From an uncultured delta proteobacterium (GTDB taxonomy: Bacteria > Desulfobacterota > Syntrophia > Syntrophales > Fen-1087), in assembly GCA_963708515.1 (NCBI GenBank), contig CAVPSX010000005.1, positions 2,958 through 66,957 on the forward strand: a DNA stretch of 64,000 nt. Direction: 5' to 3'. Made by a program: the position numbers and the translations under genes. Under the pieces are notes generated by a model. It had not been told where the DNA came from. It saw only the letters and a list, made by a program, of their open reading frames with translations, and did not search any database. Positions 3,913 to 29,217 of the stretch are shown here, one piece after another; position 1 is the stretch's first letter; the number at the start of each line of letters is the position of its first letter.

Positions 3913-4673
3913 GGCGTCATCTTCCGTTCCAGGAGCGCCCTGGCCTCTTCCATGAGCATGGCCGTGGACTGGTTATCCCGGTCATAGGCGGGCGTGAGTC
4001 GCCCGGCCAGTTCCACATCGATGGTACAGGCGTCGCGCGTATTGAATAACCAGCCGTCCGGGGGATAGAGTTTCTGAGTGTTCCGGATGGACACGACCAC
4101 GATAGGCGCCCGGCAGAGGCGGGCGATGCGGAAGGCCCCCTTGTCGAATGGCCCGATGCGGCCGTCACGGCTTCTTGTTCCCTCGGGGAAAATAAAGAGG
4201 TTGCCGCCGCTTGCCAGATAATCCGCCATGCTTTTAATCTGGGTCATCATGGCGTCCGAAAATCCGCCGTTCGTGATTGATGGCATGTACCCGGAGACCT
4301 TCAATATCCAACCGAATACAGGATAGCCGAAATAATCTTTTTTGACGATGGTCTTCTGTTTGTCGTAGAGCGACACGAACAGGATGGGATCGAGAAAGGA
4401 GCGGTGGTTGGCGATGATGATGGATGAGCGAAGAGAGGCGACCTCTTCCGCTATGTGCCATCGCACACCGGGAATCAGCATGCGCACCAGGGAAAAAAAA
4501 TACCGATGGAGGCGATGGTTCAACCGCTGGAACGCCCCTTCTTTGCTTTTTGAGAAATAATAGGCGTACAGGTAAAAGGGTGAAAAAAACACGAGGTAGC
4601 CCATGATGTACCAGATCCAGAGGGCGAGCGTGATAATGACATCAATGATGCGTGTTCTTGACAGAGGAAGCAT
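3909..4673 (-). CDS. 1-acyl-sn-glycerol-3-phosphate acyltransferase family (PlsC-like), membrane anchored
   Basis: It has N-terminal TM helices, NHRSFLDP (HX4D) and FPEGTRSRDG motifs. It overlaps the upstream gene by 4 nt. Confidence 0.8.
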   Translation of the reverse strand: MLPLSRTRIIDVIITLALWIWYIMGYLVFFSPFYLYAYYFSKSKEGAFQRLNHRLHRYFFSLVRMLIPGVRWHIAEEVASLRSSIIIANHRSFLDPILFVSLYDKQKTIVKKDYFGYPVFGWILKVSGYMPSITNGGFSDAMMTQIKSMADYLASGGNLFIFPEGTRSRDGRIGPFDKGAFRIARLCRAPIVVVSIRNTQKLYPPDGWLFNTRDACTIDVELAGRLTPAYDRDNQSTAMLMEEARALLERKMTP

Positions 4674-4683
4674 GAGAACGCCG

Positions 4684-5925
4684 TTAATGGTCCTTCCATT
4701 TTTTAATGATGACGCTTGTGTTCACGCCGCCGAAGGCAAAATTCTGGATGGCCGCAATCCCGATCGGATAGTCTCTCACGGCCTGGACATGGCGGATCAT
4801 GGCGCACCGCTCATCCACCTCTTCGAGATTCAGGGTCGGTACGATATAGCCTTCGGCCATGAGATAGGCTGCAATGATGGTTTCAATGGCCCCGCACGAT
4901 CCCATGGTATGCCCCATATAGCTCTTGAGGCCGACAACCGCAGGACGGTTTCCGTAAACGGCATGGATGGCCTGAGCCTCGATGACATCGCCCATCTTGG
5001 TTCCCGTCGCGTGGGCGCTGATGAAATCCACGTCGTCGGCAGGGATCCGGGCATCCTGCAGAGCGAGCCGCATGGTCTCGGCGATGCCGTTGATATTGGG
5101 CAGGATCAGATCTCCTCCGTTGTTGTTGCAGGAAAAGCCGATGACCTCCGCCAGAATGGTCGCGCCGCGTTTTCGGGCCCGTTCGTATTCCTCGAGGAGG
5201 ACCGCACCGGCCCCTTCGCCCACAACGAGACCGTCCCGCTTTTCGTCGAAGGGGCGCGGGGTCAGATGGGGCGTCTCGTTAAAAGCGGTGGAACAGGCGA
5301 GGAGATTGTCGAAGACGGCCACGGTGGTCGTGTCATATTCGTCGGCCCCGCCGCAGATCATGGCATCCTGCATGCCGTATTTGACCATTTCATAGCCGTA
5401 GCCGATGGATTGGCTGCTGGTCGTGCATGCTGTGGAAGAGGAGATGACGCGGCCGGTGATGCCGAACATCTTGGTGATGTTCACGGCGGTGGTGTGGACC
5501 ATGGATTTCAGATAATCCACCGCCCCGATGGATGAAAACCCGTTCCGGGAGCCGCTGAAGAAGGTCTTGTAAATCCCCCGCTGCACCGTGGGGCTCCCGT
5601 GCGTCGAACCGAAGGCGACACCCAGGCGCCCTGAAGTGATAAAGGCCTCATCCAGGCCGGCGGCCTCGAGAACCTCCTTCGCCACCTGACAGGCATAATA
5701 GGCTACCGGTCCCATGGTCTTCCGATGCTGACGCTTGAAATCGTAGGTAATGGGATAATCAACCGTCCCGAAGACTTTGGAGTGAATGTAGCGGGTCAAC
5801 ACATCGTCCTCCTTGAGGACCTTGACCCCGGAGACCCCATGGCTCAAGTTATGGAGGATCTCTTCTCTGGAGCGGCCGATGGGCGTGATGGCCGAACAAG
5901 CAGTAATGACGACTCTTCTTCCCAT
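4684..5925 (-). CDS. Beta-ketoacyl-ACP synthase (KAS I/II-like)
   Basis: 413 aa. The active-site Cys lies in SSSTACTTSS. The two His lie in SAHATGTKMGD and YMGHTMGSCG. The C-terminus is NFAFGGVNTS. Confidence 0.85.
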   Translation of the reverse strand: MGRRVVITACSAITPIGRSREEILHNLSHGVSGVKVLKEDDVLTRYIHSKVFGTVDYPITYDFKRQHRKTMGPVAYYACQVAKEVLEAAGLDEAFITSGRLGVAFGSTHGSPTVQRGIYKTFFSGSRNGFSSIGAVDYLKSMVHTTAVNITKMFGITGRVISSSTACTTSSQSIGYGYEMVKYGMQDAMICGGADEYDTTTVAVFDNLLACSTAFNETPHLTPRPFDEKRDGLVVGEGAGAVLLEEYERARKRGATILAEVIGFSCNNNGGDLILPNINGIAETMRLALQDARIPADDVDFISAHATGTKMGDVIEAQAIHAVYGNRPAVVGLKSYMGHTMGSCGAIETIIAAYLMAEGYIVPTLNLEEVDERCAMIRHVQAVRDYPIGIAAIQNFAFGGVNTSVIIKKWKDH

Positions 5926-22473: not shown

Positions 22474-22935
22474 TTATTCGGCCCGGGATTTGTCGATAAT
22501 TTCACCAATGAGCGTTGCCGTCTTCCCTGTGAGCATCAGGCAATACTCGAATTTATCGCTTCCCCGGTAACGCTTGGCCTGGTTGGTATCCGTCCAGTCG
22601 ATGCCGACTATATCGCGGCATAAAATTATTCCATCTGTGACTTCGTTTTTGAACCTTTTCATGAACGTCCGGCAATACTTCCACATCCTGATGTCCGTCT
22701 GACGTCCCGGTTCAGAACGACCATGGAGCAAGCCGATCACTGCCAAACCACCGATCACGGCGCCGCAGACCTCGCCATGGGCCCCCAGACCGCCGCCGAA
22801 TGAGTCCATTGCCTTGATCAAATCATCACTCTTCATCCCAAGCTTTTCCTGCCCGACCGCAAGAATGGCCTGGCTTCAGTGCAAACCTTCACGGAATATC
22901 CGCTGCGCCTTTTCCTGCATCTCTATGGGGGTCAT
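22474..22935 (-). CDS. C_GCAxxG_C_C family redox protein with in-frame UGA (candidate selenocysteine) replacing the first conserved Cys
   Basis: ATG 22935 overlaps the MBL stop (TGATG). It reads MTPIEMQEKAQRIFREGLH-UGA(22878-22876)-SQAILAVGQEKLG... and continues into the ORF-track fragment 22474-22836, which carries GEVCGAVIGG. The UGA sits where the family has G-x-x-C-[AS]-Q-[AS]-[IV]-L. Confidence 0.55.
22846..22865 (-). promoter_or_regulatory. Candidate bacterial SECIS hairpin
   Basis: The RNA is UUCUUGC-GGUCGG-GCAGGAA, a 7-bp stem including one G-U pair. It starts 10 nt after the UGA, and the GGUC in the loop begins 17 nt after it. Confidence 0.45.
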
Positions 22936-26533: not shown

Positions 26534-27964
26534 TTAAAGTGCGAAAAACCCGTGCTCCTGACGGGCGACACCCGTCTGAACGGCTGCCTCATGGACGGCT
26601 TTGGCCACTTTTTCCCGAACCTGCCGGTCAAAGATGCTCGGGATGATGTAATCTTCGCGCAGCTCATCGGGATTGACGCAGGAAGCGATGGCGTGCGCCG
26701 CGGCCAGCAGCATGTCATGGTTGATTTCCCGGGCGCGGCAGTCCAGCACGCCCCGGAAAAGCCCGGGAAAGCAGAGCACGTTGTTGATCTGGTTATGATA
26801 ATCGGACCGGCCCGTGGCCACCACCCGGGCGTATTTCTGCGCCTCTTCGGGCATGATCTCCGGGATGGGATTGGCCATCGCAAAGACGACGGCGTCCTTT
26901 GCCATTTTACGGATGTCCCTGGCCATGCAGCGCGTCGGGCTGGGAGACACCCAGAAAGACGTCCGCGTCTTTTATGACTTTCGTGAGCAGGCCTTTGATT
27001 TTGTGCGGATTGGTCAGCGCCGCGATTTCTTCCTTTACGGGATTCATATTCTCCTTGCGCCCCTGATAAAGCGCTCCGCTGCGGTCGCAGCCGATGATGT
27101 TCCGGACGCCCGATGATAGAAGCAGGCGGATGGATGCGACGCCTGCCGCCCCCAGGCCGTTGACGACCAGGACGATCTCCTCGATCGGCTTGTTCACGAT
27201 TTTCAAAGCATTGATAAGCCCGGCAAGGATAACCACGGCCGTTCCGTGCTGATCATCGTGGAAAACAGGGATGTCCAGCTCCTGTTTCAGACGGGCCTCG
27301 ATTTCAAAACAGCGCGGCGCGGAAATGTCCTCCAGATTGATGCCGCCGAATCCCGGGGATATCCATTTGACGGTTTTGATGATTTCTTCGGGGTCTTTGG
27401 TGTTCAGGCAGATGGGGAAGGCATCGACGCCGCCGAATGCCTTGAAAAGCATGGCCTTTCCCTCCATGACGGGCATCGCGGCCATGGGGCCGATATCGCC
27501 GAGGCCCAGAACCGCGGTGCCGTCGGTCACGATGGCGATGGTGTTCTTTTTGATCGTCAGCTCATAAACGCGCTCCGGGTTTTCGTGGATGGCGGTGGAA
27601 ACCCGGGCTACGCCGGGGGTGTAGGCCATGGACAGATCGGCGCGGGTCTTCAGCGGGAGTTTGCTGCGGATTTCGATTTTTCCGCCCTGATGGGCCATGA
27701 ACGTGCGGTCGGCCACATTGATAATGCGGATACGCCGTTGATTTTTCCGATATTCGCGGTGATGCGTTGTTCCATGTCTTGGTTGCCTGCCGTGACGGTC
27801 AGGTCCCGGATAATGCAGCCGTCTCTGAAGCCAACGATGTCAATAGCGCCGATGTCGCCGCCCGCCTTGCCGATGGCGGAGGTGACCCGGCCCAGCATGC
27901 CGGGTTTGTTGGTGATTTCCAGACGGATCAGAATGCCGTAGCGGAGCCTGGATGTCTTCATCAT
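26534..27964 (-). pseudogene. NAD(P)-dependent malic enzyme with N-terminal ACT domain, interrupted by two frameshifts
   Basis: Three overlapping ORF fragments (27650-27964, 26907-27716, 26534-26950) join into one malic-enzyme sequence (...INGVS|IINVADRTFMAHQGGKIEI...YTPGVA...DDQHGTA...GAAG...ANPIPEI...). The shifts lie near 27722 and 26930. Confidence 0.8.
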
Positions 27965-28151
27965 AAGCGGGGCCTCCTTGTGATCTTGTCATTCCCTTTC
28001 AAAAAGGGGATGAAGTGGGATGTTCGTTGCGAAGATATGTGATTTTCAGGTAATTATCAATCGCTTTTCGCGGCGCTTTTCGTGGCCGGGCTCATGAAAT
28101 GATTGCGGATAGAGGCGAGCCCTGATATAAGAGAGGAAAAAAGAGGTGTGT

Positions 28152-28352
28152 ATGGATACCATCTGGGTTCTGGTTATTGCTGTTGCTGTATGGATTTTTC
28201 TGCAGGCCTGGCTGCTGCCGAAGTTCGGTATCTCCACCTGAATGAGGCCGGGCTGCCGGTCGGCAGATAAGGATTTCACCGTGATGAAACAGGAACAAAC
28301 CGGAGAAGGGCAGGGCGCATCGGGCGACAGCGGCAACACGCCGAAGACCTGA
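28152..28352 (+). CDS. Candidate small membrane-anchored selenoprotein (29 aa TM peptide, in-frame UGA, 36-aa tail)
   Basis: AAGAGG lies 7 nt upstream of the ATG. It reads MDTIWVLVIAVAVWIFLQAWLLPKFGIST-UGA(28239-28241)-MRPGCRSADKDFTVMKQEQTGEGQGASGDSGNTPKT-stop. The UGA is followed after 11 nt by a hairpin with a GGUC loop. The ORF is too short for the ORF track. Confidence 0.4.
28253..28266 (+). promoter_or_regulatory. Candidate minimal SECIS hairpin
   Basis: CUGCC-GGUC-GGCAG is a perfect 5-bp stem with a GGUC tetraloop. It begins exactly 11 nt after the UGA at 28239-28241. Confidence 0.4.
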
Positions 28353-28425
28353 TGCGATGCGGCAGATCATGCTTTGCCGGTCTGCGCTGCCTGATTGAAC
28401 AGATCTTTTTTTTAGGAGGCATAAA

Positions 28426-29217
28426 ATGGATTGGGGAATGAATAACCGGATGTCACAGCTCATCCAGCCGGACGGACATTGCTTTTTTCTGCCGATTGAT
28501 CACGGCTATTTTCAGGGGCCGACGTCCCGTCTGGAAAAACCGGCGGAGACGATCAAGCCGCTTTTGCCCTACTGCGACGCCCTCTTTGTCACGCGTGGCG
28601 TCCTGCGCGCAGCCGTGGACCCGGCCGGGAGCAAACCGATCATTCTCAGGGTGTCCGGCGGGTCAAGCGTTATCGGCAAAGACCTCGCCAACGAGAGCCT
28701 GACCACGTCCATCGAGGAGATCATCCGCCTCAACGCGACGGCGGTCGGCATGTCCGTATTCGTGGGGAGCGATTACGAGAAGGAATCCCTGACCAACCTG
28801 TCCGAGCTGGTCAATCGGTGCGAGGACTTCGGCATTCCCGTCATGGCGGTGACGGCCGTCGGCAAGGAACTGGAAAAACGCGATGCGCGCTACCTGGCCC
28901 TGTGCTGCCGGATCGCGGCGGAACTGGGCGCCCGTGTGGTCAAAACCTACTGGTGTAAGGATTTCGACAAGGTCGTTTACGGTTGTCCGGTTCCCGTCGT
29001 CATGGCCGGGGGGCCCCGGTGCGATACGGAGCTGGAAGTCATTGAATTTGTTCATGACGGCATGCAAAGCGGCGCTATCGGCCTCAATCTGGGCCGGAAT
29101 GTCTGGCAGAGCCCTCATCCTGTGGCGATCATGCGGGCCCTGCGCGCCGTCATCCACGAGAATTATTCGGTCAAGGAAGCCTGGGACCTGTTCAGCAGCG
29201 TCAAACAGGAAAAATAA
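28426..29217 (+). CDS. Class I aldolase of the DeoC/FbaB/LsrF family (ADH-synthase/LsrF-like)
   Basis: 263 aa with a strong RBS (AGGAGG). It has FLPIDHGYFQGP and a Schiff-base Lys region ARVVKTYW. Confidence 0.65.
   Translation: MDWGMNNRMSQLIQPDGHCFFLPIDHGYFQGPTSRLEKPAETIKPLLPYCDALFVTRGVLRAAVDPAGSKPIILRVSGGSSVIGKDLANESLTTSIEEIIRLNATAVGMSVFVGSDYEKESLTNLSELVNRCEDFGIPVMAVTAVGKELEKRDARYLALCCRIAAELGARVVKTYWCKDFDKVVYGCPVPVVMAGGPRCDTELEVIEFVHDGMQSGAIGLNLGRNVWQSPHPVAIMRALRAVIHENYSVKEAWDLFSSVKQEK

Follow-up and report, generated by a model that had tools for sequence, protein, structure and literature searches.

A stretch of 64,000 nucleotides (nt) from an uncultured Syntrophales bacterium of the phylum Desulfobacterota (contig CAVPSX010000005.1; the whole stretch is hereafter called the window) appears to encode, at 28152-28352 on the plus strand, a 66-residue membrane-anchored protein that contains one selenocysteine (Sec), and we assign a probability of about 0.88 to this being a real, single gene. 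That is, a UGA codon near the middle of a short reading frame would be decoded as Sec, and translation would continue into a second, hydrophilic half of the same protein. The original prediction, made from the letters of the window, had proposed a selenoprotein with a U-x4-C pair (U, Sec) beside a single transmembrane (TM) helix; this proposal is now supported by related loci, as opposed to the single-sequence argument with which it had been advanced.

As read directly from the sequence, the gene opens with an ATG at 28152 that lies 5 nt downstream of a ribosome-binding site (AAGAGG, 28141-28146, plus strand), and a purine-rich GAGG/GGAGG is kept at this place in related loci. Its first 29 codons, up to 28238, encode MDTIWVLVIAVAVWIFLQAWLLPKFGIST, which comprises a 3-residue tail and the single TM helix and ends in ...LLPKFGIST. 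The in-frame TGA follows at 28239-28241 (candidate Sec30), and the frame then stays open for 36 codons at 28242-28349 (MRPGCRSADKDF...TPKT), encoding MRPGC and a charged, variable and probably disordered tail, until the terminal TGA at 28350-28352 (i.e., 66 codons including Sec30, plus the terminal stop). The codon for Cys35 (28254-28256), the partner in the U-x4-C pair, is located inside the 5' arm of a hairpin of the Sec insertion sequence (SECIS) type, CUGCC-GGUC-GGCAG, at 28253-28266. The ribosome-binding site, the ATG, the 29 codons, the UGA and the open 36-codon continuation had all been part of the original prediction and are all present where it had placed them.

Conservation of the UGA and of the frame beyond it

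The related loci came from two scans. Scanning one genome per species with the aldolase found next to the gene yielded 80 loci, mostly from Syntrophales metagenome-assembled genomes, eight of which have the small frame upstream of the aldolase, and a metagenome scan yielded 64 further loci with 37-98% identity (31-98% for the N-terminal part at 28152-28238). The search patterns of the metagenome scan were taken from the TM half only, and the sample is therefore unbiased as to the stop codon. The comparison set comprised 72 loci with 54 distinct sequences, from Syntrophales, Candidatus Fervidibacter and others. The internal codon was TGA in all 72 loci and all 54 distinct sequences, and never TAA, TAG or a sense codon, whereas the terminal stops of the same genes were mixed (TGA 38, TAA 10 and TAG 4).

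The frame after the UGA is conserved as protein. It is open for 15-37 codons at every locus, with insertions and deletions in multiples of three, and the Cys at position +5 from the UGA is invariant (T-U-x4-C), its codon showing synonymous variation only (37 distinct sequences have TGC and 14 have TGT, and the first two bases never change). On the other side of the UGA, the residues invariant in this Sec branch of the family are A12, W14, F16, Q18, L21, P23, G26 and T29. Conservation spans at least two phyla, with residues before and after the UGA that do not vary, and the check that the original prediction had proposed, on the fate of the reading frame and its post-UGA part in relatives, came out in its favor across the 72 loci.

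Cys homologues of the small protein

A profile search of 5.8 billion protein clusters returned 1115 matches, nearly all of which are "hypothetical proteins" of 29 residues with the T of ...T as the very last one; these public entries stop at 29 residues because the Sec codon was read as a stop. The same search also recovered full-length homologues with Cys at the position of the UGA (P0007, P0010, P0013, P0014 and P0071), and the corresponding TGT or TGC codon was confirmed in the contig DNA for P0007, P0013 and P0071. When the Cys forms served as the query of an exhaustive hidden Markov model search of 1.84 billion representatives, 1243 matches were obtained at E <= 0.001, many of them Cys forms of 45-95 residues, adding dozens more homologues with Cys at the UGA position. 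The Cys forms share the signature W-x2-L-x2-W-[IV]-L-P-x2-G-[IV]-x-T-C-[ML]-S-G-x-C, with L22, P23, G26, T29, C30 and C35 as invariant columns, of which P, G, T, C (or U) and C are just as fixed in the Sec branch. Homologues that carry Cys in alignment with a UGA are the pairing by which selenoproteins are classically recognized, and on this alignment the small gene is a predicted selenoprotein gene. Cys homologues, which the original prediction had suggested looking for, therefore exist, with Cys codons that are present in the DNA.

A few database entries of a different kind were also encountered. Trp stands at the Sec position in P0008, P0009, P0011, P0137, P0138, P0141, P0143, P0147, P0149, P0156 and P0171, and P0008 also translates its terminal TGA as Trp (it ends in ...ARLW); these entries appear to be artefacts that arose when the contigs were translated with genetic code 4. 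P0140 and P0142 have Arg at this position. P0132 and P0133 (477 residues, from one 90% cluster) were considered as family members and rejected, being unrelated membrane proteins brought in by a clustering artefact.

A covarying hairpin over the Cys codon

The hairpin of the window consists of the stem arms CTGCC (28253-28257) and GGCAG (28262-28266) around the 4-nt loop GGTC (28258-28261). It starts exactly 11 nt after the UGA, as originally described, and the distance from the UGA to the loop is 16 nt. The significance of this hairpin arises only through comparison with related sequences and not from the single sequence. Three tests were applied to the related sequences: enumeration of hairpins per sequence with the 5' arm over the Cys codon, a null model of synonymous recoding, and a tally of base pairs.

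A hairpin over the Cys codon was found in 47 of 49 distinct sequences, with stems of 5-11 bp that start 8-12 nt after the UGA (11 nt in 30 distinct sequences); the remaining two, which belong to one clade, have a 7-bp hairpin that starts 16 nt after the UGA. The stems occur in 16 variants, such as CUGCC/GGCAG, CUGUCC/GGACAG, CUUGUC/GACAAG, UUGCGCGA/UCGCGCAA and UGCGCGGU/GCCGCGCA, and compensatory changes were seen at three pairs (C-G 18 and U-A 26; C-G 34 and U-A 13; C-G 29 and G-C 18), the second of which contains the synonymous wobble base of the Cys35 codon. That is, the position of the hairpin is kept while its sequence covaries, which answers favorably the question of hairpin conservation raised with the original prediction. 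The mean hairpin energy is -9.0 kcal/mol vs. -1.7 kcal/mol for random synonymous recodings of the same peptide, with 43 of the 49 sequences within the top 5% relative to this null (0.05 level), and individual energies across the family mostly range from -9 to -15 kcal/mol.

These features were compared with the consensus for bacterial SECIS elements (bSECIS), that is, the Zhang and Gladyshev model as summarised in PMC13188914, which specifies a loop of 3-9 nt, a stem of 4-16 bp, a G in loop positions 1-2, a UGA-to-loop distance of 16-37 nt, and a minimum free energy of <= -7.5 kcal/mol (PMC13188914). The family as a whole agrees with this model. Its loops (GGUC, AGGC, GGGC, GGUCAA, GGUCGA, CGGGU, GGG, GGA and similar) start with G, GG or NG, in line with the model, and the hairpin of the window fits it in loop length (4 nt), stem (5 bp), GG start and spacing (16 nt). 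In energy, however, it reaches only -6.8 kcal/mol, and a rival fold is predicted, so that the window clade stands at the weak end of the model. Aligning 24 ungapped post-UGA segments with MAFFT and folding them with RNAalifold gave no consensus structure, because stems and loops vary in length, and an Rfam scan of the window at gathering thresholds gave no match.

Probable Sec decoding in the source genome

The window carries a second selenoprotein gene, at 22474-22935 on the minus strand, with an in-frame TGA at plus-strand positions 22876-22878; lists of open reading frames (ORFs) give just the 120-residue part that follows the UGA. This gene matches TIGR01909, the "C-GCAxxG-C-C family (seleno)protein", at 57.4 bits vs. 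a cut-off of 47.4, its UGA takes the place of the first Cys in the motif of the family, and 10 nt further on there is a good bSECIS (UUCUUGC-GGUCGG-GCAGGAA). It corresponds to the independent candidate at 22846-22878 that the original prediction had pointed to, which is thus real. Because of this second gene, the source genome probably decodes Sec. Syntrophales are rich in selenoproteins, and a relative, Syntrophus aciditrophicus, has 19 of them (PMC1794560).

Alternative explanations

Several observations weigh against reading the small gene as a selenoprotein gene with a redox role. On the side of the hairpin, RNAfold applied to 28236-28300 favors a competing hairpin, GGCCGG-GCUG-CCGGUC (which is not conserved in close relatives), and the region, taken as a single sequence, folds no better than its shuffles (z = -0.89); the hairpin of the window clade is minimal, with a stem of 5 bp and an energy (-6.8 kcal/mol) that does not reach the -7.5 kcal/mol of the model; and the Cys forms L148 and L146 retain partial hairpins, with an unrelated GC-rich fold in L145. 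Further, ARAGORN reported no tRNA gene, hence no tRNA-Sec, in the 64 kb, and the predicted Sec decoding by this genome derives solely from the second selenoprotein gene in the window. The gene neighbourhoods are heterogeneous, and the window clade is flanked by an aldolase and a malic enzyme, not by redox genes. Finally, the window has frameshifts in the adjoining malic-enzyme gene (described below). Despite these frameshifts, the small gene is identical in independent contigs: the product encoded on metagenome contig L081 is the same over all 66 residues, and the 29-residue half (P0099) is present on seven public contigs.

We considered four alternatives to a single selenoprotein gene. The first one, which we regard as very unlikely although it survives best, is that there are two translationally coupled genes, with a 29-residue membrane peptide followed by a 36-residue hydrophilic peptide that starts from the adjacent ATG (TGAATG). 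The codon right after the UGA is indeed ATG in 57 of the 72 loci, and public gene callers do annotate the halves separately (P0001-P0003 with 36 residues; P0004-P0006 and P0099 with 29-43 residues). However, the other 15 loci have CTG (11), GTG (2), CTT (1) or GTA (1) instead, which rules out an obligatory restart codon, and no Shine-Dalgarno sequence precedes the second half. Further, the invariance of the supposed stop as TGA, next to terminal stops that do vary, does not fit with two genes, and neither do the Cys homologues, each of which is one uninterrupted ORF that includes the same T-C-x4-C motif.

Slightly less probable still is the hypothesis of a regulatory leader peptide (an upstream ORF) with an attenuator hairpin that controls the aldolase, under which the post-UGA frame would remain untranslated. 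The small frame and the aldolase do share a strand, with the former 73 nt ahead of the latter, no terminator-like site was found between them (scanned region, 27900-28500), and a DeoC-type aldolase is found nearby in 29 loci. Nonetheless, there is no terminator-like T-run after the hairpin, and the genes downstream differ among loci (e.g., a zinc-ribbon protein, a YgaP-like_TM (DUF2892) protein, a DsbD-thioredoxin fusion), while the aldolase of the second clade is convergent and two genes away. Moreover, the substitutions in the post-UGA Cys codon show a coding pattern, and the continuity of the Cys forms as ORFs speaks against a leader as much as it does against two genes.

A chance open frame with a chance hairpin in a non-coding spacer, the third alternative, draws on the poor single-sequence fold (see z-score above) and on the fact that 4.7% of the 2329 UGA triplets of the window precede a hairpin that fits the bSECIS model at least as well (1.2% if similar spacing is also required). 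These same figures make unsound the original argument that two UGAs with like hairpins are unlikely to arise by chance. The alternative itself is nonetheless hardly credible, being refuted by the comparative evidence, namely the frame conserved over at least two phyla down to 31% identity with invariant residues flanking the UGA, the more than 1000 related database clusters, and the covarying hairpin. Equally negligible is an alternative genetic code with UGA as a sense codon (Trp or Gly), to which the public calls with Trp (e.g., P0008, P0009, P0011) would point, since such calls also translate the terminal TGA as Trp (code 4 artefacts), the homologues have Cys rather than Trp or Gly, and the window uses the standard code, with its 38 long ORFs, of normal length, ending in TGA (24), TAA (10) or TAG (4).

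The protein and a proposed mechanism

Members of the Sec branch are 45-66 residues long, each with exactly one Cys besides the Sec. AlphaFold2 modelled one of the Cys forms as a single helix at residues 2-24 with the remainder unstructured, and the C-terminal tail is variable and rich in K, R, D and E. The N-terminal tail (about three residues) has a net charge of -0.6 and the 20 residues past the helix +2.4, from which, by the positive-inside rule, we infer that the N-terminus is outside and the C-terminus in the cytoplasm, with the helix at about residues 4-22. This topology would place the T-U-x4-C pair (T-U-M-R-P-G-C; Sec30 and Cys35) at the cytoplasmic face of the membrane.

Taking the steps from the established bacterial Sec pathway, translation would start at the ATG at 28152 and the ribosome would arrive at the UGA at 28239, where the hairpin at 28253-28266, whose apical loop begins with G and lies 16 nt past the UGA, would recruit SelB-GTP-Sec-tRNA(Sec). 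Sec would then be inserted at the UGA and translation would run on to the real stop at 28350. In the finished protein, the Sec30/Cys35 pair may cycle between the selenol/thiol and the selenenylsulfide state and be reduced by cytoplasmic thioredoxin, so that the protein could act as a membrane-tethered redox element in the handling of thiol, persulfide or metalloid stress.

The locus in the window

The small gene occupies part of the 461-nt gap between the start of a malic-enzyme gene (27964, minus strand), which encodes an N-terminal ACT domain, and the ATG (28426) of a gene for a DeoC-type aldolase (LsrF/ADH-synthase-like class I; 28426-29217). Upstream of the small gene, on the plus strand, there is a conserved CTGATATAA motif at 28122-28130 whose columns show no variation among the nine Syntrophales loci in alignment A1. 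The motif may serve the small gene as a promoter element of the extended -10 type (TGnTATAAg); a consensus promoter scan did not call it. The malic-enzyme gene (ACT, malic and Malic_M domains) is spread over three frames on the minus strand (ORFs at 27650-27964, 26907-27716 and 26534-26950) and is an undivided ORF in the relatives L001, L004, L005 and L018, which implies two frameshifts within 26534-27964, from either assembly indel errors or a pseudogene.

Gene neighbourhoods across the family

In other loci, several genes with a role in thiol or sulfur chemistry adjoin the small gene. Three independent loci with the Cys form (L145, L148 and L154) have, immediately upstream and in the same orientation, a gene for a canonical cytoplasmic thioredoxin (WCGPC) that lacks a signal peptide, and in L149 a DsbD_TM-thioredoxin fusion begins 5 nt downstream of the small gene. 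YgaP-like_TM (DUF2892) genes are found directly downstream in L107, L148 and L155, and also within the operon of L151, which has the order ArsR, rhodanese/YgaP_TM, peroxiredoxin, Lactamase_B-rhodanese (persulfide-dioxygenase-like), small gene, unknown, CMD. ArsR-type HTH_5 regulators occur at L146/147, L151/152 and L156, zf-HC2 anti-sigma factors and ECF sigma factors in L145, L156 and L093, C-GCAxxG-C-C genes upstream in L102, L103 and L144, and a CoA-disulfide reductase-rhodanese near L099-101. With these neighbourhoods as its sole basis, the function that we would tentatively suggest is that of a membrane-tethered selenol/thiol pair, recycled by thioredoxin, which takes part in the handling of thiol, persulfide or metalloid stress; this assignment is possible, and at present we consider it doubtful.

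The gene listed as unknown in the L151 operon (4192-4923) has a 4-nt overlap with the stop of the small gene, here a Cys form, and may be translationally coupled to it. Its product of 243 residues has no match in Pfam and shows a signal-peptide-like N-terminus and a His/Gly-rich stretch. A different neighbour is an FmdB-type zinc-ribbon gene (MPIYEFRCDRCGHEFE...), located directly downstream of the small gene in L111, L121, L122, L130, L132, L139, L140 and L142. L154, an unrelated locus with the Cys form, has an FmdB-type gene (1097-1315; Pfam Zn_ribbon_8) in this same place, so that one clade of the Sec branch and a Cys-form locus share the neighbour. In some organisms, FmdB is itself counted among the selenoprotein families.

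DeoC/LacD-type aldolases are near the small gene in 29 loci, which belong to two very divergent clades with different arrangements: the aldolase is downstream on the same strand in L081-L087 and the window, and two genes downstream on the opposite strand in L132 and about 12 other loci. This co-occurrence comes in part from how the first loci were collected, but the aldolase played no role in the choice of the metagenome loci. In 24 metagenome loci, including L123 and L138, a SAM hydroxide adenosyltransferase gene (SAM_HAT_N and SAM_HAT_C) is divergently oriented about 26 nt upstream, an adjacency that is probably clade-specific synteny.

Novelty, significance, and comparison with known systems

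The protein family has quite likely not been described so far. Searches against Pfam-A 2025 and NCBIfam r20 (June 2026) gave no credible match at E <= 10 or E <= 1 for 32 members of the Sec branch, in which C stood in for U, or for 10 members of the Cys branch. Among the 119 prokaryotic selenoprotein families and subfamilies of the 2026 inventory, there is neither a UxxxxC motif nor an entry described as a short membrane protein with a single pass (PMC13188914 Table 1), and the deep-Sep, BSepDB, Olavius-symbiont and SAO-system papers mention no such protein. The broadest description that we can offer, and one that we hold to be less likely than not, is that of a widespread single-pass family of 45-95 residues with a juxtamembrane [Sec/Cys]-x4-Cys motif, which might serve as a membrane-tethered redox switch or relay, serviced by cytoplasmic thioredoxin, in persulfide, thiol or metalloid stress. 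Few bacterial selenoproteins would be as small as its Sec branch, and none before it would have had a single helix as its anchor.

Recognition of the family corrects more than 1000 database clusters, which currently appear either as "hypothetical proteins" of 29 residues or as a pair of unrelated fragments, and brings one more family into a prokaryotic selenoproteome that stood at 119 families and subfamilies in 2026. The tiny gene, with a SECIS of 14-30 nt that overlaps the codon of the partner Cys, offers a compact natural system for the minimal rules of bacterial Sec insertion, in which Sec and Cys forms of one small protein both occur naturally and can be directly compared. Further, a selenol at the cytoplasmic membrane surface, near thioredoxin, rhodanese and persulfide-handling genes, hints that anaerobes have a redox function close to the membrane that is as yet unexplored. 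Overall, we view the family as a solid and widespread yet incremental gain for the selenoproteome, and its minimal architecture as unusual.

The closest analogy in overall architecture is to the eukaryotic SELENOK and SELENOS, which are small proteins with a single N-terminal anchor, a charged, disordered cytosolic tail and one Sec. To our knowledge, there is no sequence relationship between these and the small family, and the likeness is one of analogy only. The Sec of SELENOK and SELENOS is located at the extreme C-terminus and decoded through a SECIS in the 3' untranslated region, whereas the predicted Sec here is near the membrane, eight residues after the helix, with a Cys five residues later and an in-frame bacterial hairpin.

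DUF2892/YgaP-like proteins (PF11127) are likewise small membrane proteins, which end in ...G-I-S-T-C; however, they have two helices as opposed to one in the small family, and the likeness is confined to a five-residue motif. Kinship with DUF2892, whose C-terminus the ...GIST-U ending of the small protein resembles, was rejected based on an hhalign probability of 0.5% (E = 0.11 over 11 columns) and the lack of a Pfam match. Among known prokaryotic selenoproteins, the MerT-like putative mercuric transport protein, the SaoP permease, YeeE/YedE and TsoB all have Sec in or near a membrane segment, and the UxxxxU motif of TsoB (rhodanese/DsbD-like) has the same four-residue spacing as the UxxxxC here (PMC13188914 Table 1). 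These proteins differ from the small family in being multi-pass or multi-domain and in having their own NCBIfam or Pfam models, none of which matches the small family at E <= 10, with TsoA and TsoB set apart from it through their NCBIfam models only.

Finally, the small gene resembles the bacterial selenoproteins decoded through a bSECIS (e.g., fdhF) in having an in-frame UGA conserved in its orthologues, Cys homologues, and a nearby Cys in a redox-type motif, as well as a hairpin within the coding sequence just downstream of the UGA, with a G at loop positions 1-2 and a UGA-to-loop distance of at least 16 nt. It departs from the usual bacterial selenoproteins in the spacing of its motif, which is U-x4-C here and UxxC or CxxU in the latter. 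The decoding mechanism would be the ordinary bacterial one, and the novelty lies in the protein family and its architecture.

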